Origin: an uncultured Gammaproteobacteria bacterium
GTDB taxonomy: Bacteria; Patescibacteriota; Microgenomatia; Levybacterales; UBA12049
Direction: 5' to 3'
Length of the DNA stretch: 64,000 nt
Assembly: GCA_964507055.1 (NCBI GenBank)
Contig: CAZDOJ010000001.1
Span: 593,313 to 657,312, forward strand
This document shows, piece after piece, positions 42,701 to 64,000 of this stretch (positions within the stretch are counted from its first letter, which is position 1; each line of letters starts with the position of its first letter). The position numbers and the translations under genes are program-made. The notes under the pieces are model-generated. The model worked only from the letters and a program-made list of their open reading frames with translations. It did no database searches and was not told the DNA's origin.

Positions 42701-43053
42701 TGGTAACAGTAAATATCAAAAAACTAGTTAAAGAAAGTTATAAAGACGGTATATTAGTAGAGGAATACGTAGAATATATTGCGGGAAAATTAAGCCGTAA
42801 GGATCTTAAAGAATATATTTCTTTGCTTAAAGCAGAAGAAATGAAAAAACAGGTATTGGTGACGTCAGCAAGTGAGCTTTCGAAGGAAGATATAGCGAAA
42901 ATTCAAAAGCTCTACCCTGGAATGCAAATCGTCACTTCAATTGATAAATCAATGATTAGTGGAGTACGAATTGTAGAAAATAATAAGGAGTACGAGATTA
43001 ATTTAAATCGTACGTTTCATGATATAATAGGTTTCTTAAGTCGAAATGATTGA
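42700..43053 (+). CDS. atpH: F0F1 ATP synthase subunit delta (OSCP), an unusually short 117-aa form
   Basis: Sits between atpF and atpA. The C-terminal OSCP-like segment (VTSASELSKEDIAKIQKL...ISGVRIVENNKEYEINL) is present, but the N-terminal helical domain appears absent. Confidence 0.65.
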   Translation: MVTVNIKKLVKESYKDGILVEEYVEYIAGKLSRKDLKEYISLLKAEEMKKQVLVTSASELSKEDIAKIQKLYPGMQIVTSIDKSMISGVRIVENNKEYEINLNRTFHDIIGFLSRND

Positions 43054-44566: not shown

Positions 44567-44621
44567 TTTGGGCTTAGTATAGTGGACCAAACACTAAGCA
44601 CTAACTAACTAAGCACTAACT

Positions 44622-46896
<2,275 letters not shown>

Positions 46897-46907
46897 TACA
46901 ACCAATT

Positions 46908-47324
46908 ATGAAACTCGAGATAGTAACTCCAGAAAAAATTATCTATAGCGGCGATGTAGACCAAATTACTGTTGAAACAGTGGATGGAAGAATCGCTATC
47001 CTTCCCCATCATGTAAATTTATTTACCAAAATCAAACCAGGCGAACTACATCTCAAAATAGCTGATAAAGAACAGTTCCTTGCAGTTACTGGAGGATTCT
47101 TGGAAGTAAGCAATAATAAGGTAACTATTCTAGCAGATTATGCGATACACGCTGAAGAAGTTGATGTTGAAAAAGCACTTGCTGCTCAAAAGAGAGCTGA
47201 AGAACTATTAAAGAAAAAAGAAGGTCAGCTTTCAGATATCGAATACGCGGAACTCCAAGGTGCACTTGGTCGAGCATTGCTCGAATTGGATATAGCCAAC
47301 AAACGTAGGCGGAGAAAAGTTTAG
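46908..47324 (+). CDS. atpC: F0F1 ATP synthase subunit epsilon
   Basis: MKLEIVTPEKIIYSGDV...ILPHH is the canonical epsilon N-terminal beta-sandwich. Confidence 0.85.
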   Translation: MKLEIVTPEKIIYSGDVDQITVETVDGRIAILPHHVNLFTKIKPGELHLKIADKEQFLAVTGGFLEVSNNKVTILADYAIHAEEVDVEKALAAQKRAEELLKKKEGQLSDIEYAELQGALGRALLELDIANKRRRRKV

Positions 47325-49120: not shown

Positions 49121-49867
49121 TTGCTAGAATATCACTACATGAGACAACCAGCAGAAAAATCACGATTCAAAGAGCACCTACAAAAAGAAGCATCAAGAAA
49201 TGTTATCTTTGCAATTTTGGGAATTATTCTCGTTGTTGCTCTTCTTATAATCTTTGGAACCAATATATTAGTAAGCTTTAGTTTGCTTGTAGGGAAAATA
49301 TCTGGCACTGATGACCCCCCTGCTGAAACGCAACAAAATGTCACCTATATCGCTCCTCCAACACTTGATCCGACGGCGGAGGCTACAAGTAGTGCTGCTG
49401 TTGTCATAACCGGATATGGAAAGCCAGACCAACGGATAGATCTTTATCGAAATGGGAAAATGATAAGTAAAACAACTGTAAAAAGTAATAACACCTTTCG
49501 ATTTACGAATGTTACATTGGTGGAAGGCGTAAATAGCTTAAAAGCAAGAGCAGTTACAGATGATAATCAACGAAGTAACTATTCAAATGAAATTAGGATA
49601 TCTTTGCTTAATAAATCCCCTGAACTTTCGGTAGACTTTCCACAAGATGGTCAAGTCTTTAAGAAAGACCAAAGTCCAATTAAAATTAGTGGAAAGACAG
49701 ATCCAGGCGTAAAAATTACAGTAAATGATTTTAGAGCTATTGTTGATAGTAGTGGAAATTATAGCTATTTGTATAATTTAAAGGATGGAGACAATAATCT
49801 AAAAATTGCAGCAACAGATAATGCAGGAAATCAGACGACTAAAGAGATTAACATTCGGATAGAATAA
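49121..49867 (+). CDS. Hypothetical membrane-anchored protein with extracytoplasmic Ig-like (Big-type) beta domains
   Basis: N-terminal TM (VIFAILGIILVVALLIIFG), then beta-rich repeats (VVITGYGKPDQRIDLYRNGK..., IKISGKTDPGVKITVND). Confidence 0.45.
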   Translation: MLEYHYMRQPAEKSRFKEHLQKEASRNVIFAILGIILVVALLIIFGTNILVSFSLLVGKISGTDDPPAETQQNVTYIAPPTLDPTAEATSSAAVVITGYGKPDQRIDLYRNGKMISKTTVKSNNTFRFTNVTLVEGVNSLKARAVTDDNQRSNYSNEIRISLLNKSPELSVDFPQDGQVFKKDQSPIKISGKTDPGVKITVNDFRAIVDSSGNYSYLYNLKDGDNNLKIAATDNAGNQTTKEINIRIE

Positions 49868-51070
49868 CTATTCTTCTTTACTTAATAAGCTATATTGTAT
49901 CCACATCCAGAGAATAATTGCCGGGAAAAAGAGACTATTTATAAAAAAAGCATTAATAAATAATCCAAAAGCTGAAGCAATAAAAACCGCTGCAAATACA
50001 TCTTTTTTCTTTCTAAATTTGCTCATTGCATCCCCAAGGATTCGAGCCCACATAGTTAGGAATGCAGTAAATCCGATAATTCCTGTTGTTGCCAAAACAA
50101 AGAGAAAACTATTATCGACACCAGCATCAGCATTTGATGGATATTTAGGATGCTCCTTTCTAAAACCATACTCCTGTTGAGCATATCGATAGGCATTAAA
50201 ACCTATTCCAAGAAGGGGACTATTTTGGTAAATAGTAAAAGCATTTCCATACGATTCCAATCTCGCCCCAGTTGATGCTACACGAAAAAGATTTGTGTTC
50301 TCGATATAGAATCGTGGAGAAACAATAATAAAATACAGAACAAGCACCGCGATTCCAACAAAAATAATTTTCTTTTGTTTTAAGAAAAAAAGTAACACTC
50401 CTCCCCCAAATAAAAGCATAAGAAGTGCACTCCTTGAAAATGTTAAAAGAACTGCAATAAGAGTTAATGCCAATACAGTCGCATATACATATAATTCTTT
50501 TCTATTTTTGTTCTTTATCGATTGATACAAGAATCCAGAGGCAAAGATTGCATACAATACAAGAAATGATCCAGCAAAATTTGGATCGTAAAAAGTAGAA
50601 AAGAGCCGATACATATGATCATCCCAACCAATCGAGACTAAATTTCTGATATCAGAATAGAAAAAATATTGAAAATAACCAACGATAACAACAAGTAAGC
50701 CATCAAACAAAAGCAGCTGCTTTAATCTTTGTTTGAATTTTTCGTCAAACTGCGGGATAACAAATAGTACACTCATATAGCTAACCCAACGTATAAGATA
50801 TAACGAGGCAACAGCTAACTCGACTCTTTGAAGCCATATACTATTTACGAGCAAAGAAAGTCCCCCTACAATTGGAAACAAAAAAAAGATAGATTTAAAT
50901 AGTGCTTGCTTGTTCTTTTGAATAATCCAAAAGAGCAAAGTAACAGCTAAAAGTCCCGCAACAATATCTAAAGGTTTTAAGTAAATGCTATTACCAATGT
51001 TAAAGCGTAGGATTTCACCAATAGGCAAAATAATAAGGAGCAGTATCGTAAGCGTTTTTAACAATATCAT
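49868..51070 (-). CDS. O-antigen ligase / Wzy_C-family polytopic membrane protein
   Basis: 10-12 TM helices and a large periplasmic loop with an R/H-rich region (FSRSALLMLLFGGG). Confidence 0.6.
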   Translation of the reverse strand: MILLKTLTILLLIILPIGEILRFNIGNSIYLKPLDIVAGLLAVTLLFWIIQKNKQALFKSIFFLFPIVGGLSLLVNSIWLQRVELAVASLYLIRWVSYMSVLFVIPQFDEKFKQRLKQLLLFDGLLVVIVGYFQYFFYSDIRNLVSIGWDDHMYRLFSTFYDPNFAGSFLVLYAIFASGFLYQSIKNKNRKELYVYATVLALTLIAVLLTFSRSALLMLLFGGGVLLFFLKQKKIIFVGIAVLVLYFIIVSPRFYIENTNLFRVASTGARLESYGNAFTIYQNSPLLGIGFNAYRYAQQEYGFRKEHPKYPSNADAGVDNSFLFVLATTGIIGFTAFLTMWARILGDAMSKFRKKKDVFAAVFIASAFGLFINAFFINSLFFPAIILWMWIQYSLLSKEE

Positions 51071-52203
51071 GTTTCTATTTTACTATTTTTAATTTTTATC
51101 AGTATATACAAATTAATAAGCCATAAAAGTATCCCTCCAAAGAAGATGTGACTCTGTATAATAACTGGCAAGGTTAAGGGATTAGCAAAATTAATAGCGA
51201 TAAGTGCATACGATAAAGCGAGAAAAATATAGAAGACATTATCCTTGAGGTAATTTTTAACCGTATAAACGAGGATAAAAAACGGTAAGAGCAAAAAGAT
51301 AAAATGATGCTGCCATGAGAAATTATTTATAAGTAAACTCAAAATAATAAGAAGCGATAATTCCAAATTAATTACTGTTTGAGATTTATTATATTTCCAC
51401 AAAATACACGCACCAGTAATACTCAGCATAACCACTGGTATTATTATTCGTAATATTTGGTGACTATTCTGATCCTCTATTTGACGCATTAATAGACCAG
51501 TTAAAGCTTGATTGTAATAGTCCCCTTTCCATGAAGCCAATAGTTCTGGAAGCATCTGGGTAAAAAATTTATATTGAATATCAAAAGACACAAACACAAG
51601 TGATAGTAAAAATAAAATTGCTAAAGTAAGTATCAAAGAACTAAGTGCTGTAAACTTCTTACGAAAAACCAAATATGGAATAAAAAGAAGGGGAAAGAAC
51701 TTTAACATGGCACTAAAAGCAAATGCGGTTCCGACACGAATATCATTTTTCTTATTGAGAAAATACCATATCAGGGTAGTAAAAAGGAGAATAACTCCAT
51801 TGATTTGACCCATGCCTAAAGTAAACTTGGTAGGAAAAGCCAAAAAGACTAATCCACTTAAGAATAAATTTAATGGACTGAAAAATTTCACTTTATATAT
51901 CCTATTAATCAGATGAATACTCAAGACTATCGCCGCTATAGAAATAACGATCCAGAGCTTAGAAGAAATATCGTATGAAAGAACGCTTAAAGGTATAAAA
52001 AAGACCATATCAAATGGTGGATAGACTTGTGGAGTAAAATAATTAGTATCGCTAAGATATGGATTTTCTCCTTGTAGTAAATGTTGGGCACCATAATAAT
52101 GCACCTGATAATCAGGATATGTTGGTAATAACAAAACACGTAACATCCACACAAAAGAGAATATAAAAAATAGCAACGGTATATATCTTTTTAGTATTCC
52201 CAT
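51067..52203 (-). CDS. Polytopic membrane glycosyltransferase-like protein (DUF2029/GT87-like GT-C fold)
   Basis: Multi-TM, with an acidic/aromatic motif in the first loop (YPDYQVHYYGAQHLLQGENPY). Confidence 0.5.
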   Translation of the reverse strand: MGILKRYIPLLFFIFSFVWMLRVLLLPTYPDYQVHYYGAQHLLQGENPYLSDTNYFTPQVYPPFDMVFFIPLSVLSYDISSKLWIVISIAAIVLSIHLINRIYKVKFFSPLNLFLSGLVFLAFPTKFTLGMGQINGVILLFTTLIWYFLNKKNDIRVGTAFAFSAMLKFFPLLFIPYLVFRKKFTALSSLILTLAILFLLSLVFVSFDIQYKFFTQMLPELLASWKGDYYNQALTGLLMRQIEDQNSHQILRIIIPVVMLSITGACILWKYNKSQTVINLELSLLIILSLLINNFSWQHHFIFLLLPFFILVYTVKNYLKDNVFYIFLALSYALIAINFANPLTLPVIIQSHIFFGGILLWLINLYILIKIKNSKIET

Positions 52204-53831
52204 TGCTTACCTCCATCTGAGTAAAGTTTTACGTTGGTTTTGTTATTTTCATAAATAAGCCGCCATGATTTAAATCTCGAAGGCAATTCTGCGTCTTGTG
52301 TCGCAACATAATTAAAGTTATCTCCGGCTTTCGCCCATGAATGATGAATATAGGGGAAATCTATATAGTACAAATTATGAAAACCATACAACAAAACCAT
52401 ATCCTCAGGTTTGATATTTTGGGCAAAGTATCCATCTGTATCGTAAAAATCACCAAATGAAAAATTTAAGGTATTAGAAAGAAAATCATCTTTAGTTTGT
52501 GTCCCAATTACTACAGCAATATATCTGCTGTTGGCAATAAATCTATAAGCAGTTGTTGTCAGTCCAATAAATAGAACAATCAAAATAAGGAGTAAATAAT
52601 TCTTGGTAGCAACATTTCCTTTTTCTTTACATTGATCAATAACTCCTGCACATATTATTGATAACGCTGGTAGATATGGGACTAAGAGACGACTTCCTTC
52701 GATTTGTGAAGTCGTATACCAATAACATAAAGCAAGTATTGAGTAACCATACAGTATTTTAATATCTTTTTTTGATTTTAGAAAAAAGTATATAAGTAAT
52801 GGAAAAAAGATAATATACACAGGTGATAAGGGGTCACTTGCATGGGTAAATACATTCCATAATGTGGTTGAAAATATCACTGGATTAATAAGTGCACTAT
52901 CAAAAATTTTGGTATGTAATCCGGCAAAGATATCTGAAAAGATTGGATATATTGGATTGCCTGTATTTAAGAATGAAAAAATGAACCACGGAGCAGCAAT
53001 AGATAAAGATATAAATACGTATCCGAAACCATACTGAATAGCATTTTTTGTACTTCTCTCTTTGACAATATATTTATAAAGAATTAAGAGTACGAAGATG
53101 ACAATTGTACCCAATGCAAGCAGTTTGGTAGCAACTGCCAATCCTGTCATTAGTGCGGACAATACGAACCATTTCTTTCTACCCAATCTCCACCAATAAA
53201 CAAATGCCGACAATGCGAGTACTTCAAAGAATGTACGAATTAAATCTATGTATGCTGTAGTCGATTCCCACGCAACTACTAAATTGGAATAAAAAATGAG
53301 AGCTGCAATGAGTGAAATTGATTGATTGAAAAATTTTCTTGATAATCTATAAATACAAATCAATATAAAAATTCCAAACATCCAATGTATAACTTTTGCT
53401 ACTATTTCATTACCAAATGCCATTGCACCAACATATAGTAACTCTCCCAATTTTGGCATATCACTGTAGTACAACAACCCCCCAGGAATATGGTAGATAG
53501 CATGATTAAGCAGGTAGAGCTTAGGTATGGTTAAATGGTACCAAAGTGCATCAAAGGCCAACTCAGGACCCAGAGCTCCCATCAAATTGACACCCGCAAG
53601 CAGAATAAGTAGTGCAATAGTTACTATGGATAATCTATCTGATCGCAAACGAGATCCTGCTCTTCGAATAGTATCTGATATATTCAAAATACTTTTTCTA
53701 AAAAAAAGCATTACAGAAAAAATGAAAAGAATTGTGATCGTGTTGACTACTTCTTTGTAGAGAAGATTACTTATTCCTAAAAAGAAAATTATGTAGGTGT
53801 AGATCCCAATTAAAATTGCAAAATTAAACAT
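52191..53831 (-). CDS. GT-C fold membrane glycosyltransferase (ArnT/PMT, GT39/83-like)
   Basis: 546 aa with more than 10 TM helices and a first-loop motif GPELAFDALWYH. Confidence 0.55.
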   Translation of the reverse strand: MFNFAILIGIYTYIIFFLGISNLLYKEVVNTITILFIFSVMLFFRKSILNISDTIRRAGSRLRSDRLSIVTIALLILLAGVNLMGALGPELAFDALWYHLTIPKLYLLNHAIYHIPGGLLYYSDMPKLGELLYVGAMAFGNEIVAKVIHWMFGIFILICIYRLSRKFFNQSISLIAALIFYSNLVVAWESTTAYIDLIRTFFEVLALSAFVYWWRLGRKKWFVLSALMTGLAVATKLLALGTIVIFVLLILYKYIVKERSTKNAIQYGFGYVFISLSIAAPWFIFSFLNTGNPIYPIFSDIFAGLHTKIFDSALINPVIFSTTLWNVFTHASDPLSPVYIIFFPLLIYFFLKSKKDIKILYGYSILALCYWYTTSQIEGSRLLVPYLPALSIICAGVIDQCKEKGNVATKNYLLLILIVLFIGLTTTAYRFIANSRYIAVVIGTQTKDDFLSNTLNFSFGDFYDTDGYFAQNIKPEDMVLLYGFHNLYYIDFPYIHHSWAKAGDNFNYVATQDAELPSRFKSWRLIYENNKTNVKLYSDGGKQWEY

Positions 53832-55579
53832 TATTGAACTATCTGGAAAATATAATCATTTTGAATTTTTGTAACAAATTTTAATGATTTATTTTTATTA
53901 AGTTCAGCAATTATAGCACCCCCGTCACGAACCGTTTTACCTTCATAAGTAAACTTATTAAAATATAATGTATCGTATTCTTTCTTATGAACTATTATGT
54001 AGTCTACTCCAAGTGTTGAAAGTTTTTGTATTGTGTTATCACTTGGAAAGTTAAAGAGCAGATCTTTAACCAAATTTTGCCAAGGTTCGGGAGAAAAACC
54101 ACTTGCACCATTGACCATCTTACGAAAATGAACAGTTGAATAGTATTCTCTATAATTTTCATCAAATACATATGGTTGCATATCCCATGTATAAATAGGC
54201 ATCTCAATCAAAACTGAATCCTTTGGAGTTGTATTAAGCCAAGAATATACTTGAGGAAAAGTACTTTTTTGCGGTACTTGCTCATAATGCAAAGGGAAAT
54301 TAAACTCAGAAATTACACCTATGATAAGAAAGCTATATATAATTGCTTGTTTCTTAAAAGATACTTTATTCAATAGTTGATGTAAAACAAAAGCTACAAT
54401 AACAGCAATTGTAATAATGAAAAGCATTTCCCATCTAGAAGAATTCCTTATTCCTTGAAATCCTGGGATAATGTAGTAAAACAAAACATATGGTAACGGT
54501 ATAGGGAATGGATTATGTATTGTCTGTCTGAATAAGTGAAGGAACGGACCCAAACTCATAATAAAACCGAAAAGCGATATCCATAAAATTGAGTTTAACT
54601 GCCAATTTTTCTTTTTATACTTTTTAAAGAAAATTATTATTGAAAATATCGCGAGCGTAGTAAAAACAAATCCAATAAATCCTGGTTTAAACTCTGTACT
54701 ATTATACGGCGTTTTTACTTGAATAGAAGAAAGTATAGGATCTAAACGAGAATAATGGTTTGTATTGAAATAATCTTCAGGTTGCAATGCTAAATGAATT
54801 GTGTCTCTAATATCTCTCACATAATTAAATTCTTTTGAAACTGAAAAGTAAGGGATAGCTATTGGCAAAATTACTAATATACTTAAGAGCATAATGATCA
54901 CGTTTCTTTTTATTAATAGTTTCTTGGCTTTTTTTCTATTTTGAATTCCGAAGAAAATTAAAATAATAAGAAAACTAAAAGCAATAAAATAACCTGGCAT
55001 AAAACTATTAACTGTTTGCAGAACAAAACAAATCATAGAAAGGGTAAGAAAATGTCTCTTTTTTGTTTCAAGAAATTTGAGGAAGAATAAGATAGCAAAC
55101 GGAACAAATGCTATTGATAGTATTTGGATGTGTACAAACTTATCCAATACAGCTGGAGAGAAAATAACTAATAGTCCCGAAAAAAAAGAAGCAATTCTAT
55201 TCTTTACTAAGTAATATGACAAACAGTAAATAGAAAAACCTAAAAGTATTAACGAAGAAATAATTGTAAAGTTAACAAAGACTATTGGTTCTTTAAAGAT
55301 AAGATATGGAATATAGCTAAGTATACTTGTTACCAAAAAGAAATCAGAATATGCCAAACTATTTTTAAATGGATAATAAATATTTGCGTTGAATATATTT
55401 AACGGATCAGTAAAAAGAGAGTGTGCAACCCAATTATGTATCCACGCAATGAGAAGTTCATCACCAAAGCCGGTAATCAGAGTATCGAGATTAAATAAAA
55501 GAGGATATGTTATAAAAAAAACTGCTAGAGAGTAGAATATAAAAACTAAACTGTAATGATATTCTCTTATTTTTTCCAT
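53831..55579 (-). CDS. Polytopic membrane protein, GT-C-like glycosyltransferase (hypothetical)
   Basis: 582 aa. N-terminal TMs with a first-loop GFGDELLIAWIHNW acidic motif, and a large C-terminal soluble domain. Confidence 0.45.
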   Translation of the reverse strand: MEKIREYHYSLVFIFYSLAVFFITYPLLFNLDTLITGFGDELLIAWIHNWVAHSLFTDPLNIFNANIYYPFKNSLAYSDFFLVTSILSYIPYLIFKEPIVFVNFTIISSLILLGFSIYCLSYYLVKNRIASFFSGLLVIFSPAVLDKFVHIQILSIAFVPFAILFFLKFLETKKRHFLTLSMICFVLQTVNSFMPGYFIAFSFLIILIFFGIQNRKKAKKLLIKRNVIIMLLSILVILPIAIPYFSVSKEFNYVRDIRDTIHLALQPEDYFNTNHYSRLDPILSSIQVKTPYNSTEFKPGFIGFVFTTLAIFSIIIFFKKYKKKNWQLNSILWISLFGFIMSLGPFLHLFRQTIHNPFPIPLPYVLFYYIIPGFQGIRNSSRWEMLFIITIAVIVAFVLHQLLNKVSFKKQAIIYSFLIIGVISEFNFPLHYEQVPQKSTFPQVYSWLNTTPKDSVLIEMPIYTWDMQPYVFDENYREYYSTVHFRKMVNGASGFSPEPWQNLVKDLLFNFPSDNTIQKLSTLGVDYIIVHKKEYDTLYFNKFTYEGKTVRDGGAIIAELNKNKSLKFVTKIQNDYIFQIVQ

Positions 55580-55600
55580 GTCAGATGGAGAATAATTAGT

Positions 55601-56416
55601 CTATAATTTTCTAAAATAACCATGAGCTTCTCCACCAGCTAGAAGTACTCCTACTTTTTCTTTCTTATCTTTAAAAAACTCATCGCAAGCTTTCTTAACA
55701 CCAGGCAAAATATTATTTACATCTAAAACTTTCGGGTCACAATAATCGTCAATAATAACTACCGCACCTTTTGATAGCTTAGGATATACATATGTTAAGC
55801 TTTCGAGAATTGACGAATAAAAATCTCCATCCAAATGTGCAAAACTTATTTTAGAAGGCAACCCTTTTGGAAGAGTATCGGAGAACCATCCTTCATGTAT
55901 TTTAGGCAATTTAGTTTTATGTTTTTTAAAGTTTTGTTCTAGTGCTTCTTTTTGTGTACTACAACTTCCTGCATAAAAAACAGTATCCCCATCTTTATCT
56001 GTTTTTTCAGGTAGTCCTTCGAATGAATCATATACATGTATTATTTTATTTGAATCTAATTGATCTAAAGTTTTCTGCATAAGAACAGACGTTGTACCAT
56101 CGAAAGAACCCAGCTCAACGACATCGCCAGGAACTTTTAGTAAAACTACTTGTGTTAAAAGATGATAGATGTTGACAGCTTGTTCTAAATTAGACCAATC
56201 ACCATTTAACATATTCTCTTTTGAATCAAATTCCTGTGAATTTTTAATAGCATAAACCCTATTCAAATTGTCATTCTTAAACTTTAATTTCAAAAATCTT
56301 TGGCTACCGTTAAAGGATTTAATGATTCTTGCAAGGAGGTTCCTTTTTAGATCTGTCTTAACATTTTGCTTTTGAAGACTCAAGATGAATGTGTTATCAA
56401 TATTATTAGCTTTCAT
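55601..56416 (-). CDS. TylF/MycF-family SAM-dependent O-methyltransferase (macrocin-O-methyltransferase-like)
   Basis: GDVVELGSFDGTTSVLM ... HLDGDFYSSILESLTYVYPKLSKGAVVIIDDY. Confidence 0.75.
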   Translation of the reverse strand: MKANNIDNTFILSLQKQNVKTDLKRNLLARIIKSFNGSQRFLKLKFKNDNLNRVYAIKNSQEFDSKENMLNGDWSNLEQAVNIYHLLTQVVLLKVPGDVVELGSFDGTTSVLMQKTLDQLDSNKIIHVYDSFEGLPEKTDKDGDTVFYAGSCSTQKEALEQNFKKHKTKLPKIHEGWFSDTLPKGLPSKISFAHLDGDFYSSILESLTYVYPKLSKGAVVIIDDYCDPKVLDVNNILPGVKKACDEFFKDKKEKVGVLLAGGEAHGYFRKL

Positions 56417-56562
56417 TATGATATATTATACAGCATTTTATTTAATAGCGTTATCCTGAAATTAACTACAAAAACCACCTCTACAGAAGAGATAATAAAA
56501 ATATAAGCAAAGAATAACCAAAGACCACAGAACAAAAAAAATAAATTGATATTTATACAGCA

Positions 56563-57264
56563 TCATACTTTTCTTGCCACCGCAATTAACGATATACCGA
56601 TAGGTACTTTATTAATAGATTCTAAAAATCGCAATAAAGGAACAATGCTATCAAAAATTTTTATTTGATATGGCTTTAAAGCTTTTTTGTTTCGACTCAC
56701 TTTATCCCGAATAGTCCAACTAAGTAAACCAACTATATTAAAAAAATATATCTTTTCGATTGTAAATCCTGCCTTTTCTAATTTTGCAACAAGTTCTGCT
56801 TTTTCGTAGCGACGATAATGTCCAAGCTCTTTATCCAAACGTGTATACGCACTTTTCTTAGCAGGAACGAGAAGTAACACTTTTCCCTCTTTCTTTAAAA
56901 TTTTTTTAATATGCGATAAAGCTTTCATATCATCATCAATATGCTCTAATACATTAATTGCATAGACGGAAGAGAAAAAGTTCTCATGTTTCTTTAAGGG
57001 CTTTTTAGTAATATCTAGCTGTTCGGCAAAAACATTCTTTTCCTTTGCAAATCTTTTCTTCAGCTGCTTAACCAAACCTTTATCAATATCCGTTAAATAG
57101 AGAGGTTTATATTGCAGAAAGTGTTTGGATAAATTGCCAATTCCAGCACCTATTTCCAGCGTTGGAGATGACATATGCTCAGAGATTTGATGTGCGATCC
57201 ATTTATTATAATTTTTCGCATCCTCGAGGACTTCTAATGTAGTAATACCTTGGTACTTAATCAT
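56563..57264 (-). CDS. Class I SAM-dependent methyltransferase
   Basis: TLEIGAGIGNLSKHF (motif I) and an acidic motif II. Start taken at MIKYQG. Confidence 0.75.
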   Translation of the reverse strand: MIKYQGITTLEVLEDAKNYNKWIAHQISEHMSSPTLEIGAGIGNLSKHFLQYKPLYLTDIDKGLVKQLKKRFAKEKNVFAEQLDITKKPLKKHENFFSSVYAINVLEHIDDDMKALSHIKKILKKEGKVLLLVPAKKSAYTRLDKELGHYRRYEKAELVAKLEKAGFTIEKIYFFNIVGLLSWTIRDKVSRNKKALKPYQIKIFDSIVPLLRFLESINKVPIGISLIAVARKV

Positions 57265-58012
57265 TATTTTTCTTTTGCCAAAGGAGCCACAATTTAGCAC
57301 GTACTAAAAACGAATGAAAGGACATAAGCATCGCAAAAACCAATCCAGGAATGCCATCTGCATATCCTCTCTTGAAGATATAATTTATAGTAAATTTTGC
57401 GATAGGATAAACAATAGGAGACCACCAAAAAGATTTTACATTCTTATCAAATAGTTCCTTTGCCCGTAAATCCGTATAGAAATTTATTTCCTGCAAGAAT
57501 TCTTCTACAGTCGCATGTGGATAGTGATCTAAATGATTTTTTAGTGTCATCACTTTCCCGTTAACTTTCCACTCTTCATGAACATGTCCCTCCCATTGTC
57601 CAGCATTCCTTCGTGCCAAACGCAGTAATTTTATATTTGCTGTCTCGCCATACTTCAATGGTTTTCCCCACATAGTATCGTGACGATTAATGTAATATCC
57701 TTGGATATCACTATTGGATTCGTTTGTTTCTGCCATGATTTCGTACCATAATGGCGAAGATACTCTTTCATCAGCATCAATAAAAAATACCCATTCCCCC
57801 TTTGCTTTACTAAGACCAAAATTCCTTTGTGCTGCAAAGTTACCGTTCATTGCATGTGTAACAACTTTGGCGTTTTTTTTCTTTGCGAGTTCTACAGTTT
57901 TATCTGTAGAATTGTCATCTATAACAATTATTTCGTCACACCACGACAAACTATCCAGACATTTCTCAATATTCTTCTCTTCATTTTTTGCTAAAACAAT
58001 TGCTGAAATCAT
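57257..58012 (-). CDS. Family 2 glycosyltransferase (GT-A fold)
   Basis: ISAIVLAKNEEKNIEKCLDSL...IIVIDDNSTDKT...FIDADE DxD region. Confidence 0.85.
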   Translation of the reverse strand: MISAIVLAKNEEKNIEKCLDSLSWCDEIIVIDDNSTDKTVELAKKKNAKVVTHAMNGNFAAQRNFGLSKAKGEWVFFIDADERVSSPLWYEIMAETNESNSDIQGYYINRHDTMWGKPLKYGETANIKLLRLARRNAGQWEGHVHEEWKVNGKVMTLKNHLDHYPHATVEEFLQEINFYTDLRAKELFDKNVKSFWWSPIVYPIAKFTINYIFKRGYADGIPGLVFAMLMSFHSFLVRAKLWLLWQKKNND

Positions 58013-58013
58013 A

Positions 58014-59429
58014 TTATTTTAATTGCCTTTCAGAAACCTCAATCTGATCGGGCTTTTCCGTGACTGTATATATAAGTTTTTCTTTTCCTTGAGAAGGTGC
58101 TTTACCAAGCCACCAAGTTAAATATGTATATGGCATAATAAAACTCTCAAACTTACTTCCATTGCCAAGACCCTGTATATTATACTCTCTTCCATTGGAT
58201 TTAGCCGTAATAATTTTGGCAGCAGTAAGTCTTTCTTCAAATGAATATCCAAAGTCGCGTGTGTTCATCAAATAATTATTTTGCACCAAAGTCCAAGCAT
58301 TCAATACTCCCCAAAGAAGAATCATAAATGATAAAAGTACTTTTGATAGATTCGTACGCATGAAAGAAACTATCGCTACAGCAAGTACCAAAATAATCGT
58401 CGGGAAAAACATTGGCCAATATGCTTCAGATGTTGTTTTGAGAGCTAGATAACTAACAAATGGAATAAAGAAACAAAGATACAATATAATTAATCCTTTA
58501 TCAAAAATCTTCTTTTGAAATTTGCGGTATAACGAGAATGATACAACTACAACTGCAATAATCAAAATTGCTAAGGAGATAAAGTCATTCGGAAGGAAAA
58601 TAAGTTGCTGTATTTTGGTAAGAGTAAACGGTATAAATGGTGCTAGTGGTTCAAAGACTTTGTCTCCATGAATACTTGGGAAACCAAAAAGAAGTGCAAA
58701 TCTATACCCTACCCATACTACAACTTTTAATGTTTGTGGGAATCCATTTTGGAAATCATAGATAAGCATTGGTAGCATTGGAATAATCCAAGCAAGAAAA
58801 GATAGGCCAATTACTTTTTTGTTAAGTAACTTAATTGCAAAATCTTTCTTTTTCCATAACCCAAAACCTAAAATGATAAATGCAACAAGAGAAAAAGGGG
58901 TTGTGGAAATCTGAAAATTGTAAAGCAGTGCTATGAGAAAAATTACAGCTGGAAAATAATAAATATTTCCTGTTATCCATTTATATAGAGCGAACATATA
59001 GAGTAGTGCTGTCAAAGGAATAAAACTTGTATGATAAGGCGTTCTAGCATGGATGATGATCAAAGGTGATGTGGCATAAAGGAAAGTGGAAACCAAACCA
59101 ACCGCTGACGAAAACATCTTTTTTCCAATTATATACACAAGCAGTACTGTAATAACTCCAACCCCAGCAGTAAAATAAACTGGTGCTATCGGATTAAATT
59201 GAGATACAGCGAAGATGAGACCTAAAATATATGTCCACAAAGCTCCCTGATGTAACCAAGGATGACTTGATGCAATCCCCACAAGCGGAATATTTCCCGT
59301 TAATACCATATCTCGTGCAGAAATATAAAACCATGCTTGATCACTAAAAAATGACATTAACTCGGGAAGACGATAAAACAAAAGCCCTGCAGAAATGGCG
59401 ACTATTAAAATGATGAGATATTTTATCAT
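58014..59429 (-). CDS. GT-C fold membrane glycosyltransferase (GT39/83, ArnT/PMT-like)
   Basis: 471 aa with more than 10 TM helices and a first-loop motif FFSDQAWFYISARDM. Confidence 0.6.
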   Translation of the reverse strand: MIKYLIILIVAISAGLLFYRLPELMSFFSDQAWFYISARDMVLTGNIPLVGIASSHPWLHQGALWTYILGLIFAVSQFNPIAPVYFTAGVGVITVLLVYIIGKKMFSSAVGLVSTFLYATSPLIIIHARTPYHTSFIPLTALLYMFALYKWITGNIYYFPAVIFLIALLYNFQISTTPFSLVAFIILGFGLWKKKDFAIKLLNKKVIGLSFLAWIIPMLPMLIYDFQNGFPQTLKVVVWVGYRFALLFGFPSIHGDKVFEPLAPFIPFTLTKIQQLIFLPNDFISLAILIIAVVVVSFSLYRKFQKKIFDKGLIILYLCFFIPFVSYLALKTTSEAYWPMFFPTIILVLAVAIVSFMRTNLSKVLLSFMILLWGVLNAWTLVQNNYLMNTRDFGYSFEERLTAAKIITAKSNGREYNIQGLGNGSKFESFIMPYTYLTWWLGKAPSQGKEKLIYTVTEKPDQIEVSERQLK

Positions 59430-59510
59430 TATAGCTATTATAGAAAAACTTACGAATTGTAGTTATTATACCAACTTCATAAAAACGATGAATCATGTTG
59501 ATTAGAAGCA

Positions 59511-60527
59511 CTATAACTTTAAGGAAATTGATTCCATAATTCCGCGTACAGCATAGAACCATTCACGCTTTGTAAAGCGTGGTGACACTGAAAGGTCTCG
59601 TGGAAGTTTTGTATAGACTTCAGGCTCTTTGAGGAGTAACTGCCATTCGGAGGTAAAGTCAAAGTATGTATCCACAATATGCTGTGCTCTGATTTCTCCC
59701 AACCGTTGATTTTGAAAATCCGTCCACTTCATATCTCGCCACGTAACTTTTGAGAAAACAGACTTTGGGAAACAACCAAAATACAATCGATGCATTGCAT
59801 ACCAATATTGCCAGATTTTGTGAGTAGGTGCAGCATTGATAAGCGATCGTACATCCATGTATCGATCTATCCGATTTAAAGGGAAATCCGTATCTGTTTT
59901 AAAAAGATGTTTCAGTATCAAATCCACTTCTGGAGCTTGTTGAAAGATATGCCCATCAAAAGCAAGATTATTTTCCATCAAATGCACCATATCATCAATA
60001 TGCCCGGCAAAATAGAAATCAGTAGCAAAAAATGGAAATATTCGATAGACAGAAGAAAATAATAATGGTTCTCGAACAATCTCCGATTTCCACGCTGGAT
60101 CTTTTTTGTAGATTTTTAGATTCTTCGGAATATAAAAAGAACTCATGAAATCAATAGTATCGGAAGAGACGTACTGATCCGTCCTTATCTTTAGTATATG
60201 TGTGATTGATGTATGTTTTTGTATCTGCCTAATTCCTTGAAGGGTCGAAAACCATTGACGGCGTCGATTATAAACATCACGTCCTGTTGGTGGTGTATTG
60301 CGAAGAATAGTTACCTTGGGATGAGAATATGTAAATTTTTCGCCTTTCCATATACTTACCACAATATGACCGACCGTATGACGTTGAAGATACTCTTCAA
60401 TATTGTGTTTGATTGTTGTCGTCGAATCAAAACCCTGACTCATTATTGGTCCCTGAATCACCACCCCAATTTTCATTTTTTTATCATAGCAGGTTGTCCC
60501 GTCTTGAGAAAGGGAAATCTCTTCCAT
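59511..60527 (-). CDS. Hypothetical cytoplasmic protein inside the glycan cluster (probable start at MKIGVVIQG)
   Basis: ORF only, with no confident motif. Gene context suggests a role in polysaccharide biosynthesis. Confidence 0.4.
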   Translation of the reverse strand: MEEISLSQDGTTCYDKKMKIGVVIQGPIMSQGFDSTTTIKHNIEEYLQRHTVGHIVVSIWKGEKFTYSHPKVTILRNTPPTGRDVYNRRRQWFSTLQGIRQIQKHTSITHILKIRTDQYVSSDTIDFMSSFYIPKNLKIYKKDPAWKSEIVREPLLFSSVYRIFPFFATDFYFAGHIDDMVHLMENNLAFDGHIFQQAPEVDLILKHLFKTDTDFPLNRIDRYMDVRSLINAAPTHKIWQYWYAMHRLYFGCFPKSVFSKVTWRDMKWTDFQNQRLGEIRAQHIVDTYFDFTSEWQLLLKEPEVYTKLPRDLSVSPRFTKREWFYAVRGIMESISLKL

Positions 60528-60561: not shown

Positions 60562-61437
60562 GTGAATATGATTAACAAATCGAACATAATAACGCATCGA
60601 GGACTAGAACCAACAAAAACAGATTTTTTTAGCGAAAGTAGTTATGAGTCTTTTAGAGATCAGTTGTCTCGTGGATTTGCAGGAATTGAATTCGATCCAA
60701 ATCCGACAAAAGATGGAATCATAGTTTTCCATGATACAAACCTTGCACGGATTACTTCTGGTAAAGATACAAGAAGTACTGCTGATTTGATGACTACTAC
60801 AGTGACAAGTATTCCATTACCTAACGGAAGAATTCCTACATTTGATGAAGTGATGGATCTGATCCGAAATAGTAACGCAACTAATAATGCTCTTCATTTA
60901 AAAGCACGATTTCAAAATCCAGAATTATTAGAAAAAATTATCAATGCATTAAGAAAGCATGAAGATACTTTAGAGAAACTCATTGTCTTTGATGTAAAAG
61001 AAGAAACTGCAATAAAATTAAAGGAAGCATTTCCACATCTCCGATTAGCACCATCAGTCGCCCATCCTTATGATATCGCACGTTACAACGACTCAGTCGG
61101 GGGAACACTTATGACTATAGAAGAGGCAATTGTATTAAAGCAAAAAAAGTTGATTGATTGGGTCTGGGGAGATGAATGGGATACTGTTGGAGAAAATGGA
61201 ACCTCGAAACAATTTTATACGAGAGAAAATTTCGATCTTCTTCATGACGTAAATCTCTTCATTGCCGTTGCTACTCCAGAACTACATAGCACCTCTCCTG
61301 GATTATATGGCGGGGAGTCACATGCTGATGCAAAAGATACAAAAACACTTTTTGCAAGGATACAACAAATAAAAGAAGCGGGGGCCGATTACCTATGCAC
61401 TGATTATCCTGAAGAAGTTACTCAGCTAAAGAACTAA
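60562..61437 (+). CDS. Glycerophosphodiester phosphodiesterase family protein (GDPD)
   Basis: ITHRGLEPT...GIEFDPNPTKDGIIVFHDTNLARIT is the GDPD catalytic HR...E.D...HD signature. Confidence 0.7.
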   Translation: MNMINKSNIITHRGLEPTKTDFFSESSYESFRDQLSRGFAGIEFDPNPTKDGIIVFHDTNLARITSGKDTRSTADLMTTTVTSIPLPNGRIPTFDEVMDLIRNSNATNNALHLKARFQNPELLEKIINALRKHEDTLEKLIVFDVKEETAIKLKEAFPHLRLAPSVAHPYDIARYNDSVGGTLMTIEEAIVLKQKKLIDWVWGDEWDTVGENGTSKQFYTRENFDLLHDVNLFIAVATPELHSTSPGLYGGESHADAKDTKTLFARIQQIKEAGADYLCTDYPEEVTQLKN

Positions 61438-62243
61438 TTAAAAGAGTAATTTTCAAGGAAGTTTTCCAAGTCTTTTGGAGTCCCCAATCCCCACACAGTG
61501 GGAGTTATCGCAGCTTTTATTTTCATGCCTTTTTCTATCATTCTTTGATATAGCGGGGCAACGAAGAATTCTTGTTTGTCTTTAGGTCCATACATATCGC
61601 CGGAACTGATCATTTCTTCTGCTTCTCTTATAAAGGTATTTCCGTGTGCAAAATAATAAGCTCCTATATTTGCATAGGCACCTTTTGAGGCAAGTTCAGG
61701 ATCTTTTTCACCGATAGCTACTGCAACTTTATTTTCATCATAAAGCATATAACTCCATTTTGGTTCATTATCAGGTGGCTGAAACACAGGAATGATGCCT
61801 TCAACATCTTCTTCTTTATTTTTTATAGCGTTATAAAGACTTGTTCCATCAAAATAATGATCCGAATCAGAAACAATCAAATCATCATCACTACTGATAT
61901 AATCCTTCGCAGCAAGGACTGTTTCGAGAGCTCCCCGAGTAACTTGAGGAATAAGAATTACTTTTATATCCTTACCAAAAACGCCTTGTAAAAGTTCTGT
62001 AATGGAATACTCTTCTTGTTGTTGGAGCAATGAAATAAAAATAAGATTTTTTGTGGGAACTTTGAAAGCTGTAGTCGCAGGTCTTTTGGGTAAATCAAGA
62101 AAAGGAAGCGACTCCATCGCCCATTCAATCATAGGTTTTCCATGTACGTTAATAAGCGGTTTCGGCTTGAGGTATTCTGGGTTTTTCTTAGCTTGTGCCT
62201 GAAATCGTGACCCAAGACCTGCCATGGGAACAATAATTTTCAT
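61434..62243 (-). CDS. Sugar-/alcohol-phosphate nucleotidyltransferase (GT-A-like NTP_transferase fold)
   Basis: N-terminal MKIIVPMAGLGSRF is the NTP-transferase G-loop. It has a paralog immediately downstream. Confidence 0.6.
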   Translation of the reverse strand: MKIIVPMAGLGSRFQAQAKKNPEYLKPKPLINVHGKPMIEWAMESLPFLDLPKRPATTAFKVPTKNLIFISLLQQQEEYSITELLQGVFGKDIKVILIPQVTRGALETVLAAKDYISSDDDLIVSDSDHYFDGTSLYNAIKNKEEDVEGIIPVFQPPDNEPKWSYMLYDENKVAVAIGEKDPELASKGAYANIGAYYFAHGNTFIREAEEMISSGDMYGPKDKQEFFVAPLYQRMIEKGMKIKAAITPTVWGLGTPKDLENFLENYSFN

Positions 62244-62247
62244 ACTA

Positions 62248-63006
62248 TTATTTCGTTCCCTTCACCATAAGGTACATCATGTATTTCATGAAATCTTCAG
62301 GCGTCGCCATGCTATGCATTTGAGACGGATCAATTTCCCAGCTTTTTATTTTTCCTCCAGTAAGTATTAATTCATTAAAGACAAGACTGACATAAAAATC
62401 ATTATTATAACGAATGTCTTTCTCTATCATATTTACCGCTGCATCGACAAAAGATTTCCCTGTACGAAAATAATAAACTCCAACTGTCGCTTTATCAGAA
62501 ATTACTTTTTTCTCAGCAACTTCGATAATAGAATCATCTGCACTAAGTCTAGCAAAACTCCATTTTGGATGGCTCGAACGAAAGGTCATAATGGCACCAT
62601 CCACTTTTTGCTCTCTTGCATACGCGATGAAATTATCAATCGCAACATCTACTACTTGATCAGAATTGGCGATAATAAGTTCATCATCATTATTTATATA
62701 ATCAACTGCAGTGAGTACACTACATGCTGCTCCTTGAGTCGGTTCAGTAAGTTGAATTTCCTTAAAGTTTTTTCCAACCGATCGCTCAAAAATCTCTTCC
62801 AAGGAATACTTACTGTAGTGGTCTTTTCTACAGATAAATACGAATCGATGTGCAGTAGTCGGACGCAAATTTTCAGCTACGATCTCTATCATTGATTTCC
62901 CATTAATATCGATAAGCGGTTTAGGAAATGCATACCCAGCCTGCTGAAATGGTGTTCCAGCTCCTGCAAGAGGAATAACAATATTAATGCTTCGTGTTTT
63001 CTTCAT
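62248..63006 (-). CDS. Sugar-/alcohol-phosphate nucleotidyltransferase, paralog
   Basis: INIVIPLAGAGTPF G-loop and a similar length. Tandem with 61434-62243. Confidence 0.6.
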   Translation of the reverse strand: MKKTRSINIVIPLAGAGTPFQQAGYAFPKPLIDINGKSMIEIVAENLRPTTAHRFVFICRKDHYSKYSLEEIFERSVGKNFKEIQLTEPTQGAACSVLTAVDYINNDDELIIANSDQVVDVAIDNFIAYAREQKVDGAIMTFRSSHPKWSFARLSADDSIIEVAEKKVISDKATVGVYYFRTGKSFVDAAVNMIEKDIRYNNDFYVSLVFNELILTGGKIKSWEIDPSQMHSMATPEDFMKYMMYLMVKGTK

Positions 63007-63608
63007 AAGAATTTGTTAAAAATAGTTAAGTTTACTTGCTCATAACCTGCTACTTCAATGACATTTGCACCTGAGCCTTTCGCAGCTTTTATACCATGCG
63101 GTGCATCTTCAACGATGACAACTTCTCCTGGTTTTACTCCTAATTTTTTAAATGCTGCAAGATATATATCTGAATTGGGCTTTGGCTTATATCCTTCATC
63201 ATTACCAATGATAAGGTCAAAAAAATGGTCTATTTGTGATTTTTTTAACATATTAAGCACAGAATATTTTTGTGCATTGGAGCACACAGCAAGCTTTAAT
63301 CCTTTATCTTTTAGATGTGTCAACATAATCTGCTTTTCATAGCTCGGCCTGCAAAATTGCTCCACAAATTGATCAGTGTATTTCCGTTTAAGGCGTTTTA
63401 CTATTTCATGAAGACCTGAAGGAAATCCTTTCCGTTCCGATAAAAGTTTTAGTTTCTCCATCGTTGGTAAGGCATTATATACGGTATAGTGATCTTGCTT
63501 ATTGATCTCATAACCAAAGAGCTGAAGTGCATCATTCAATGCTTCGAAATGCCATTCTGTTGCATCGACGAGAACACCATCAAGATCGAATATAACTGCT
63601 TTAATCGT
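63003..63608 (-). CDS. HAD-superfamily hydrolase (beta-phosphoglucomutase/phosphatase-like)
   Basis: AVIFDLDGVLVDAT is HAD motif I, with a C-terminal EDAPHGIKAAK motif. Start taken at MTIKAV. Confidence 0.8.
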   Translation of the reverse strand, partial: TIKAVIFDLDGVLVDATEWHFEALNDALQLFGYEINKQDHYTVYNALPTMEKLKLLSERKGFPSGLHEIVKRLKRKYTDQFVEQFCRPSYEKQIMLTHLKDKGLKLAVCSNAQKYSVLNMLKKSQIDHFFDLIIGNDEGYKPKPNSDIYLAAFKKLGVKPGEVVIVEDAPHGIKAAKGSGANVIEVAGYEQVNLTIFNKFL

Positions 63609-63666
63609 CATAGAGTCATGGATAATATACACTACTTACCCCTGCAATTTCAATGCAAATGAGAAG

Positions 63667-64000
63667 TTAAGCATTTTTTCGTAAAAGTTGCCAGACAAAA
63701 TAGAGATAAAAAGGAAGTGCGACAAGTGAGCCTATCAATGCAGCAATTGCGGCACCGACAATTCCATAATTTTGTACTAAAGGTACAAGCGTTGCGAGCA
63801 TACTAATAGTTGTAACAAAAGTTATCACCATTGCGTATTTTTGCTTTATTTCACTCAAAAAGAGTGCTGCAGCCATGTTAGAAAGTGCTTTTACAAACCC
63901 TACAACGGAAAGAATAGGTAATACTGAAACTATTGCCGACCATTTCTCTCCAAGAATGAAAACAAATATTTGGGGAACTACGGTAAAGATAATAACAAAA
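63667..64000 (-). CDS. Polytopic membrane protein, C-terminal part only (Wzx/MATE-like polysaccharide flippase candidate). The gene continues beyond the window end.
   Basis: Manual translation shows an open frame from 64000 down to the stop at 63667 (…FVIIFTVVPQIFVFILGEKWSAIVSVLPILSVVGFVKALSNMAAALFL…). It is uniformly hydrophobic, consistent with TM helices. Confidence 0.5.
   Translation of the reverse strand, partial: FVIIFTVVPQIFVFILGEKWSAIVSVLPILSVVGFVKALSNMAAALFLSEIKQKYAMVITFVTTISMLATLVPLVQNYGIVGAAIAALIGSLVALPFYLYFVWQLLRKNA

Follow-up and report, generated by a model that had tools for sequence, protein, structure and literature searches.

Work on Gram-positive bacteria has documented systems in which a family 2 glycosyltransferase (GT2), a Wzx-type flippase and several glycosyltransferases of the GT-C fold build and attach wall polysaccharides (PMC10821137). 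In mycobacteria, several GT-C enzymes act in series on lipoglycans (PMC12041525). PglS-type O-oligosaccharyltransferases (O-OTases) share the active-site layout of WaaL, and a catalytic His is proposed for both WaaL and PglS (PMC12800693). Here we describe a cluster of genes for such enzymes in a 64,000-nucleotide stretch of contig CAZDOJ010000001.1 (the window), which we treat as DNA of a Levybacteria-type bacterium of the candidate phyla radiation (CPR), class Microgenomatia. The cluster fills positions 49868-60527 and extends from there through the window end. Our leading but still tentative reading is that this locus would be a vertically inherited, housekeeping assembly line for a cell-envelope glycan, in which a Wzx/WaaL-like route would be joined to GT-C steps outside the cytoplasm and to methylation that differs between strains. 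The system is built from known enzyme classes. This reading draws on a family or fold for every gene, tight packing, a core gene order that recurs in relatives, decoration genes that vary, and G+C content at third codon positions (GC3) at the level of the background.

We infer the following order of steps for such an assembly line. Two nucleotidyltransferases and a haloacid dehalogenase (HAD) protein would supply activated sugars. Peripheral cytoplasmic enzymes, namely the 251-residue GT2, a WavE-like protein and a further GT2 encoded past the window end, would assemble a glycan on a polyprenyl-phosphate carrier at the cytoplasmic side of the membrane, and the Wzx flippase would transfer the lipid-linked glycan outwards. 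Outside, GT-C enzymes of 471, 582 and 546 residues would extend or branch the glycan from polyprenyl-phosphate sugars, probably helped by a 34-residue mini-protein, and an accessory GT87 protein would do the same where it is present. The WaaL-like Wzy_C protein would then polymerise the glycan or transfer it onto a conserved wall- or membrane-anchored acceptor. An S-adenosylmethionine (SAM)-dependent and a TylF-type methyltransferase would add strain-specific methyl groups. The genes of the locus, with its convergent immunoglobulin (Ig)-like neighbour, are as follows (TM, transmembrane; ORF, open reading frame).

49121-49867, plus strand: Ig-like membrane-anchored protein, 248 residues, two Ig-like domains (Glucodextran_B, Big_6, Big_13)
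49868-51070, minus strand: Wzy_C protein, WaaL-like, 400 residues (Pfam 7e-20)
51067-52203, minus strand: GT87 GT-C protein, 378 residues (Pfam 6e-30)
52191-53831, minus strand: PMT_2-like GT-C protein (PMT2a), 546 residues (Pfam PMT_2 3.7e-7, above the gathering score)
53831-55579, minus strand: GT-C-fold protein, 582 residues (in Pfam only sub-threshold DUF7657, weak DUF7657/DUF6311; AlphaFold2/Foldseek)
55601-56416, minus strand: TylF-type O-methyltransferase, 271 residues (Pfam TylF 2e-29)
56462-56566, minus strand: putative 34-residue single-pass membrane mini-ORF (ORF comparison across loci)
56563-57300, minus strand: class-I SAM-dependent methyltransferase, 245 residues (Pfam Methyltransf_12/23/11/25, 4e-14 to 4e-10)
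57257-58012, minus strand: GT2, 251 residues (Pfam GT2 8.5e-24)
58014-59429, minus strand: PMT_2-like GT-C protein, short form (PMT2b), 471 residues (PMT_2 7e-4, sub-threshold; profile-profile comparison)
59511-60527, minus strand: WavE-like protein, 338 residues (Pfam WavE 6.8e-12)
60562-61437, plus strand: glycerophosphodiester phosphodiesterase (GDPD)-family protein, accessory (Pfam GDPD 1.5e-10)
61434-63632, minus strand: two sugar-1-phosphate nucleotidylyltransferase-like proteins and a beta-phosphoglucomutase-family HAD protein (NTP_transferase, HAD_2)
63668-64000, minus strand: Wzx-type MOP flippase, C-terminal 110 codons, cut by the window end (open frame)

Conserved and variable parts of the locus

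Nine ORFs, each on the minus strand, fill positions 49868-60527; the spacing between neighbours is -44 to +146 nucleotides, and stop and start codons overlap along the cluster. These overlaps and the same-strand packing suggest co-translation. An earlier note on this DNA had placed eight genes here, and all eight lie where it put them, on the minus strand and abutting or overlapping; it missed the WavE-like gene and the mini-ORF and closed the cluster at 60527, where the locus in fact continues with the GDPD gene, two NTP transferases, HAD, Wzx and a GT2. The nucleotide-sugar module resembles the NCBIfam models rmlA_long, Arch_glmU, AglF and bPGM, in every case under the equivalog cut-off. The Wzx fragment matches its orthologue in the closest relative, L002, at 190 bits, and that orthologue itself falls in the NCBIfam MOP flippase/TuaB family. 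Contig L081, which encodes identical proteins and adds ~1.9 kb of sequence past the window end, carries the full 406-residue Polysacc_synt Wzx gene followed by the further GT2.

To compare the locus, we mapped the window proteins with phmmer on the ORFs of 36 genome and 37 metagenome loci, all 73 of which encode relatives of the 582-residue protein. A core order of (Wzx) ... 471-residue GT-C, GT2, (SAM methyltransferase), mini-ORF, 582-residue GT-C, 546-residue GT-C, (GT87), Wzy_C is present in about 20 of the 36 genome loci and also in most of the metagenome loci whose contigs extend far enough, and it ends at the convergent Ig-like protein gene, beyond which the ATP-synthase operon lies. The pair of 471-residue GT-C and GT2 and the pair of 582- and 546-residue GT-C recur in most loci, the 546-residue gene following the 582-residue gene directly or after inserted genes. 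GT2 adjoins Wzy_C or GT-C genes in all cluster loci, including contigs outside Levybacteria. The GT87 gene occurs in a minority. Between the conserved genes, relatives carry GT4, larger GT2, FkbM, C-methyltransferases, nucleoside diphosphate (NDP)-sugar dehydratase, extra PMT_2 and Peptidase_C39_2-like genes, which, judged from gene content, is the pattern of surface-glycan loci.

The block of ~250-residue GT2, Wzy_C, Ig-like protein and ATP synthase reappears in three contigs with Wzy_C homologues that are not from the Levybacteria set, L041-L043; one of these bears the label Roizmanbacteria, and the other two have different labels. Outside this block, L042 and L043 have a GT2/GT4/methyltransferase/Wzx set of the classical kind and zero GT-C genes; GT-C genes are found in the locus in Levybacteria and, in part, in the Roizmanbacteria-labelled contig. 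So, from this comparison, the locus appears to be an ancestral surface-glycan locus beside the ATP-synthase operon, with one conserved and one variable end.

The description of the cluster as an island does not hold if horizontal transfer is meant. GC content dips to 0.30-0.33 in the cluster, and the GC3 of its genes (0.22-0.33) is the same as that of DnaE, AtpA/D, PilB/C and GatA outside it (0.24-0.30); therefore, the dip reflects the amino-acid composition of membrane proteins and not foreign DNA. This background-level GC3 and a gene order that is syntenic across the class, with a core that reaches partly beyond Levybacteria, rule out a foreign island. TylF (102.9 bits against a Pfam cut-off of 23) is the one genome-specific gene, missing from L002 and from all 73 related loci. 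DNA alignment with L002 places it as an insertion between the mini-ORF and the 582-residue GT-C gene, and a search for flanking repeats at this site gave no convincing target-site duplication. The WavE, GDPD, nucleotidyltransferase and HAD genes are common to the window and L002 only (77% identity to L002). The SAM methyltransferase is kept at the same position in about a dozen related loci. Since methyltransferases of the FkbM, C-methyltransferase and SAM methyltransferase types recur in related loci, methylated sugars, which the earlier note had proposed, are a reasonable expectation.

The membrane glycosyltransferases and their partners

All five membrane proteins, namely the four GT-C proteins and Wzy_C, have 9-10 predicted TM segments. 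Every GT-C family has an invariant or near-invariant acidic residue in an early loop, placed along the chain by the predicted TM segments. The acidic early-loop motifs announced for these proteins are thus borne out, as D40/E41 in the 582-residue, D30/D40 in the 471-residue and E90/D94 in the 546-residue protein and as D31 in GT87. The count of four polytopic GT-C-like proteins stands as well, by Pfam for GT87 and the 546-residue PMT_2 protein, by fold for the 582-residue protein and by profile-profile comparison for the 471-residue protein. Pfam likewise confirms the families of the Wzy_C-like ligase, GT2, TylF and second SAM methyltransferase. In the assignment by hidden Markov models, GT87 and Wzy_C score above threshold and the 546-residue protein falls in PMT_2; the 471- and 582-residue proteins stay under threshold, and neither PMT_2-like protein scores as an orthologue of ArnT or Pmt. 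With four GT-C proteins, a WaaL-like protein, GT2, a nucleotide-sugar module and Wzx, the gene content agrees with the proposal of an extracytoplasmic glycosylation locus that would use lipid-linked sugars. The four GT-C proteins would take polyprenyl-phosphate-linked sugars as donors.

The 582-residue protein, like the 471-residue protein, has no precomputed Pfam hit. Across 31 sequences aligned from the 211 homologues that we gathered, the motif GDEL, right after the first of 9 predicted TM segments, has an invariant D40 and a near-invariant E41. The AlphaFold2 model (pLDDT 85.6, pTM 0.87) has a C-terminal alpha/beta domain after the last TM helix. In Foldseek searches of the PDB, 24 of 24 matches at E<=1e-3 are GT-C enzymes (DPY19, STT3, AglB, PglB, AftA, AftD, ArnT; Pmt4 is also named among the matched solved enzymes), with E-values down to 2e-8 and TM-scores of ~0.5, which do not separate DPY19 and oligosaccharyltransferase (OST) subunits from AftA/AftD, so that the ranking among GT-C folds is not discriminating. 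By its predicted structure, the protein is a member of the GT-C superfamily. Searched against 1.84 billion proteins, its profile retrieves 15,472 cluster-50 representatives at E<=1e-3 and 2,124 at the stricter E<=1e-30; by this profile evidence the family belongs, as a single branch, to a GT-C superfamily that is very large and uncharacterised. Our literature search found DUF6311 and DUF7657 mentioned in no paper.

Of the two PMT_2-like proteins, the shorter is related to the longer and to the 582-residue family. In the 546-residue protein, E90 and D94 are invariant in GPELAFDALWYH, and in the 471-residue protein D30 and D40 are conserved. With hhalign, the 471-residue family aligns to the 546-residue PMT_2 family (96%, E 2.7e-9) and to the 582-residue family (90%), where FIGDQGWFY pairs with GDELLIAW; these profiles argue that the 471-residue protein belongs to the PMT_2 superfamily and the GT-C enzymes. 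As an ArnT, the 546-residue protein reaches 29.7 bits against an NCBIfam cut-off of 567, and the 471-residue protein has zero NCBIfam matches. Neither family profile matches a solved structure, Pmt and ArnT included, and the Pfam scan reports no MIR domains for either protein. In relatives, the 471-residue GT-C is often a ~730-residue fusion with an N-terminal GT2 domain of the rhamnosyltransferase/GlfT1/HpsN-like kind (for example L003 5552-7744, L005 6888-9092 and L041 5477-7654). In the window and in L002, the 471-residue GT-C has no GT2 domain, and the WavE-like gene lies upstream instead.

The GT87 protein (105 bits against a Pfam cut-off of 25) matches the solved mycobacterial PimE (9dm5) over residues 54-311 by phmmer, with an E-value of 9e-10. 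The PimE functional residues K195, W319, H321 and H322 (PMC12041525) align with K168, W297, H299 and H300, and K168, W297 and H299 are invariant in 8 orthologues. In addition, D31 is invariant in the motif YPDFxVHYY, as is Y36; D31 may correspond to the catalytic PimE D58, which lies at the tip of the first juxtamembrane helix, a match by motif alone, the alignment beginning at residue 54.

The 251-residue GT2 has no predicted TM segment and ends in a hydrophobic or amphipathic tail. Against the PDB, its family profile finds GmaR at 1.6e-26, SunS/ThuS at ~1e-15, GtrB at 1e-5, DPMS at 2e-5 and ArnC at 4e-3. Its closest relatives are thus GT2 enzymes that glycosylate proteins or peptides, GmaR, matched through its glycosyltransferase domain, being the Listeria flagellin O-GlcNAc transferase. 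Since the protein is far from GtrB, DPMS and ArnC, it is unlikely to be the enzyme that makes polyprenyl-phosphate sugars for the GT-C proteins, and we found no such synthase in the window or in L081.

A 34-residue single-pass peptide, MMLYKYQFIFFVLWSLVILCLYFYYLFCRGGFCS, is encoded in the 146 nucleotides that separate the SAM methyltransferase from TylF, and its start overlaps the methyltransferase stop as ATGA. In L002, the orthologue (9898-9999, plus strand) ends 1 nucleotide ahead of the start of the 582-residue GT-C gene. Mini-ORFs of 31-37 residues at equivalent positions could be aligned from 22 loci, and they share the motif F-x2-W-x3-[IV][LF]-x2-Y-x3-L-x2-[RK]. When 1.28 Mb of sequence was scanned with this motif, ~32 of the 36 matching short ORFs lay within these clusters: 23 directly upstream of the 582-residue GT-C gene and ~9 elsewhere in the cluster, mostly between the 582- and 546-residue GT-C genes. 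The remaining ~4 look random. The gene caller leaves the mini-ORF uncalled, and the mini-protein matches no Pfam family. Based on its position and motif, we regard the mini-protein as a real component of the cluster. It may be a small subunit of a GT-C enzyme, by analogy with Ost4 and STT3 or with GacJ/WpsB and GacI/WpsA (PMC10821137).

The WaaL-like protein, possible acceptors and rival accounts

The Wzy_C protein scores 71.8 bits against a Pfam cut-off of 31.7 and has ~10 TM segments. The sole strong PDB fold match to its AlphaFold2 model (pLDDT 90, pTM 0.91) is WaaL 7tpg (E 4e-6, TM-score 0.57), followed by the SEDS proteins FtsW and RodA, and its family profile finds no solved relative by sequence. 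Its orthologues share 35-71% identity in 17 loci, far better conservation than that of the glycosyltransferase repertoire. This contrast suggests a ligase with a fixed acceptor rather than a serotype-specific polymerase. Four arginines, R213, R263, R270 and R295, are invariant, as would be expected for binding of a polyprenyl diphosphate. We take the catalytic-His motif in the periplasmic loop of WaaL and PglS to be H[NSQ]x9Gxx[GTY]; the stretch of the window protein that would correspond to it, positioned by sequence, is D319-N320-x9-G330-xx-G333, with D319 invariant or nearly so. An invariant H152 lies in another loop than D319.

The genes for the Ig-like protein and Wzy_C meet tail to tail without a single base between them, and wherever a locus has Wzy_C, L041-L043 included, the two are neighbours. 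The Ig-like protein has one N-terminal TM segment, and in 19 of 19 aligned orthologues a hypervariable juxtamembrane linker rich in Ser, Thr, Asn and Gln is followed by two Ig-like domains. We consider it a candidate acceptor or partner of the Wzy_C protein, for which adjacency alone is no proof. The Pam pilus operon of CPR also neighbours ATP-synthase genes, and the paper that describes it deals with no glycans or glycosylation (bioRxiv 10.64898/2026.03.03.709456). We rejected the Ig-like protein as a Pam-pilus component, because it reaches 30 bits against the PamR cut-off of 300 and its anchor has the opposite topology; the similarity is at the domain level.

Several observations weigh against a housekeeping wall-glycan assembly line. 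We know of no glycan, donor or acceptor for any Levybacteria. From 47.8 kb to the window end and in the extra L081 sequence there is no initiating phosphoglycosyl transferase and no chain-length regulator, genes that could lie elsewhere in the genome, and the cluster holds no LCP-type wall ligase. The GT2 stands closer to enzymes acting on proteins than to polyprenyl-phosphate sugar synthases, the best fold matches of the 582-residue protein modify proteins, and the fixed acceptor suggested by the conserved Wzy_C could itself be a protein. A rival reading is general protein O-glycosylation, in which the WaaL-like protein would be an O-OTase (comparable to PglL, PglS or the S-layer enzymes WsaB/WsfB) that transfers the flipped glycan onto surface proteins. 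The prime candidate acceptor would be the Ig-like protein or else an S-layer protein, and the GT-C enzymes would add further sugars to protein or glycan outside. The conservation of Wzy_C far above that of the glycosyltransferase genes, its constant pairing with the Ig-like gene, the variable polar linker next to the outer face of the membrane, the protein- and peptide-glycosylating relatives of GT2, the top fold matches of the 582-residue protein (DPY19 and OST catalytic subunits) and the active-site layout that PglS-type enzymes share with WaaL all speak for it. However, the adjacency of the convergent genes may only reflect ancestral order beside the ATP-synthase operon, GT-C folds do not discriminate, a near-invariant Asp sits where the motif would have the catalytic His, and no sequon is known. 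We therefore judge general O-glycosylation possible, if somewhat unlikely. A further reading, in which the 582-residue GT-C and its 31-37-residue partner would be a small OST-like protein glycosyltransferase (as STT3 with the 36-residue Ost4) that, with the WaaL-like enzyme, glycosylates CPR surface proteins such as the Ig-like protein, S-layer or host-attachment pili, strikes us as unlikely. If true, the OST-like pair would add a new family to the protein glycosyltransferases of bacteria, drawn from the large uncharacterised GT-C superfamily. The genes might also be neighbours for historical reasons and serve unrelated envelope processes, such as modification of peptidoglycan or lipids. The 582-residue GT-C does stand alone in other contexts in ~16 of the 36 genome loci, L042 and L043 have the Wzy_C/GT2 block without a GT-C gene, and GT87, TylF and WavE come and go. 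Yet the overlapping stops and starts, the recurrent pairs, the fusion of the 471-residue protein to a GT2 domain in many genomes and the functional coherence of the gene content make a purely historical grouping quite improbable.

The earlier note had named the Ser/Thr-rich pilins and the giant pilin encoded upstream as plausible glycan acceptors. The features that separate or connect the two loci are listed here.

353-12344: type IV pilus operon (PilB, PilC, four N_methyl pilins, 825-residue minor pilin, Peptidase_C39_2-like protein)
37754-41026: DnaE, between the pilus operon and the cluster
41064-47324: complete F-type ATP-synthase operon
Between the ATP-synthase operon and the Ig-like protein gene: tRNA-Thr, then M23 peptidase

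That the cluster is dedicated to O-glycosylation of type IV pilins, the 825-residue minor pilin included, with Wzy_C acting as a TfpO/PglL or a GT-C protein as a TfpW, appears very unlikely. Dedicated pilin glycosylases such as TfpO and TfpW are encoded right beside their own pilin gene, and here ~37 kb with roughly 35 housekeeping genes lie between the pilus operon and the cluster, whose conserved neighbours are the ATP synthase and the Ig-like protein. A link to pili does exist in L010 (7055-11722) and L012 (8235-11740), where the orthologous pilus operon has a single 582-residue GT-C gene next to its pilB, separated from the rest of the cluster. However, this holds for 2 of 73 loci, neither of them among the 37 from metagenomes; the gene is beside pilB and not a pilin gene. 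In a neighbour-joining tree, L010 and L012 group as sisters, nested among cluster-type genes, so that a single relocation in one lineage accounts for both. We also rejected a mini glycosylation locus in L010 and L012, as the other neighbours are non-glycosylation proteins without a Pfam family. Both major pilin paralogues end in ...IQVTR, without a C-terminal Ser, and Ser plus Thr make up 15-17% of the major pilins, which is unremarkable, and 18-23% of the minor pilins, against 13.5% in the window. O-glycosylation of pilins in CPR is predicted, not shown, for Saccharibacteria (bioRxiv 10.1101/2024.11.25.624915). The pilins as acceptors are thus unsupported.

Two features of the pilus operon may be added. 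The major-pilin paralogues (353-835 and 2017-2493, minus strand) are identical in their first 73 residues and diverge in their C-terminal halves, and a putative cyclase gene lies between them. The operon also contains a secreted Peptidase_C39_2-like protein (4773-6560, minus strand) with homologues of 35-43% identity in the glycan clusters of L021 and L041, a resemblance that may form a weak second genomic link between pilus and glycan loci. Copies of this gene are found in L021 (11755-13995), L041 (3107-4894), L031 (17073-18956) and L051.

The window as a whole is low-GC (~36-38%) bacterial chromosome, and nearly all homologues of the cluster proteins are from metagenome-assembled genomes labelled Candidatus Levybacteria/Levyibacteriota or 'Patescibacteria group', on which our treatment of the organism is based. 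Proteins identical to those of the cluster are encoded on contigs assembled from runs SRR14271336 and SRR14271345. Many public records with the cluster (L002, L006, L008-L010 and others) are titled 'uncultured Gammaproteobacteria' and one 'Negativicutes'; by gene content and closest relatives, which are Levybacteria/Patescibacteria, these titles appear to be placeholder mislabels. Rfam and tRNA scans of the window returned three tRNAs only, zero of them within the cluster, and a promoter and terminator scan was uninformative, its signal being at chance level. Elsewhere in the window, a MurT-like ligase (29996-31285, plus strand) and a CobQ-type GatD-like amidotransferase (32415-33176, plus strand), usually adjacent partners in lipid II amidation, are split by two tandem Ham1-family genes (31293-31880 and 31877-32425).

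CPR, or Patescibacteria, make up a large share of bacterial diversity and live attached to other cells, and our literature search found no description of CPR surface glycans or of this locus. The locus offers a conserved, well-delimited candidate for the building of a sugar coat in one CPR class. Our analysis adds an unannotated mini-gene to the cluster, places the 582-residue protein in a very large GT-C superfamily, gives function-level hypotheses for the 471- and 582-residue proteins, which standard pipelines leave unannotated, and corrects an attractive link to pili that lacks support. Follow-up is most worthwhile for the mini-protein, for the GT-C family without annotation and for the conserved pair of Wzy_C and Ig-like protein.

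Comparison with described systems

Like Pmt (GT39, which works with Ppm1) and ArnT (GT83), the PMT_2-like proteins have a membrane domain of the PMT_2 superfamily and an acidic residue in the early loop. They differ in the ArnT score, far under its cut-off, in that Pfam reports no MIR domains and in that no Ppm1 or ArnC partner was identified here. With the teichuronic acid (tua) locus of Bacillus subtilis and other Wzx/Wzy-dependent loci for wall polymers, the resemblance lies in the flippase, whose orthologue matches MOP flippase/TuaB models best, in a weak similarity of GT2 to TuaG and in the homologous locus of L042 and L043, which reads GT2/GT4/methyltransferase/Wzx/GT2/Wzy_C. In contrast, a TuaA-type initiating transferase and a TuaF-type chain-length protein were not found in the window or L081, and the GT-C genes have no tua counterpart.

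Among WaaL, PglL, PglS and TfpO (7tpg; PMC12800693), the Wzy_C protein compares in its above-threshold domain score, a fold nearest to 7tpg, its invariant arginines and a conservation above that of the glycan genes. Unlike these enzymes, it has no solved relative by sequence, carries an Asp at the presumed His position and is not encoded beside a pilin gene. CPR are regarded as monoderms without lipopolysaccharide, in which no lipid A-core can exist; therefore, the acceptor of the WaaL-like protein should differ from that of WaaL. No lipopolysaccharide genes were seen in the window.

In the synthesis of mycobacterial phosphatidylinositol mannosides, lipomannan and lipoarabinomannan (PimE, MptA-C, EmbC, AftA-D; PMC12041525), several GT-C enzymes work in series outside the membrane, as those of this locus would. 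GT87 keeps the PimE functional residues, and the fold of the 582-residue protein resembles AftA/AftD. The organism here is a CPR bacterium and not an actinobacterium, its GT87 is accessory, Wzx and a WaaL-like protein belong to the locus, and genes for a Ppm1-like synthase, for phosphatidylinositol or for an arabinose donor were not seen.

The multi-component systems of Gram-positive bacteria (the lactococcal PSP genes WpsA-J, streptococcal GacIJKL and three-component systems of the CsbB/GtcA/YfhO type; PMC10821137) differ from this locus in several parts. The 251-residue GT2 lacks the C-terminal TM helices expected of the GT2 synthase in three- or four-component systems, GtrABC included, and is not close to the GtrB/GacI type, the locus has an extra WaaL-like Wzy_C protein and four GT-C genes from three or four families, and rhamnan and LCP ligase genes are absent from it. 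GacJ is far larger than the mini-protein, and the two are unrelated in sequence. Yet in both cases GT2, a Wzx-type flippase and several GT-C enzymes occur together in a monoderm. In the Gram-positive systems, the glycan is built on polyprenyl phosphate, flipped, and polymerised or attached outside by GT-C enzymes, and the Levybacteria locus would follow the same course. In addition, both include a small membrane protein, GacJ/WpsB there and the 34-residue mini-protein here, and in both the decoration varies between strains.

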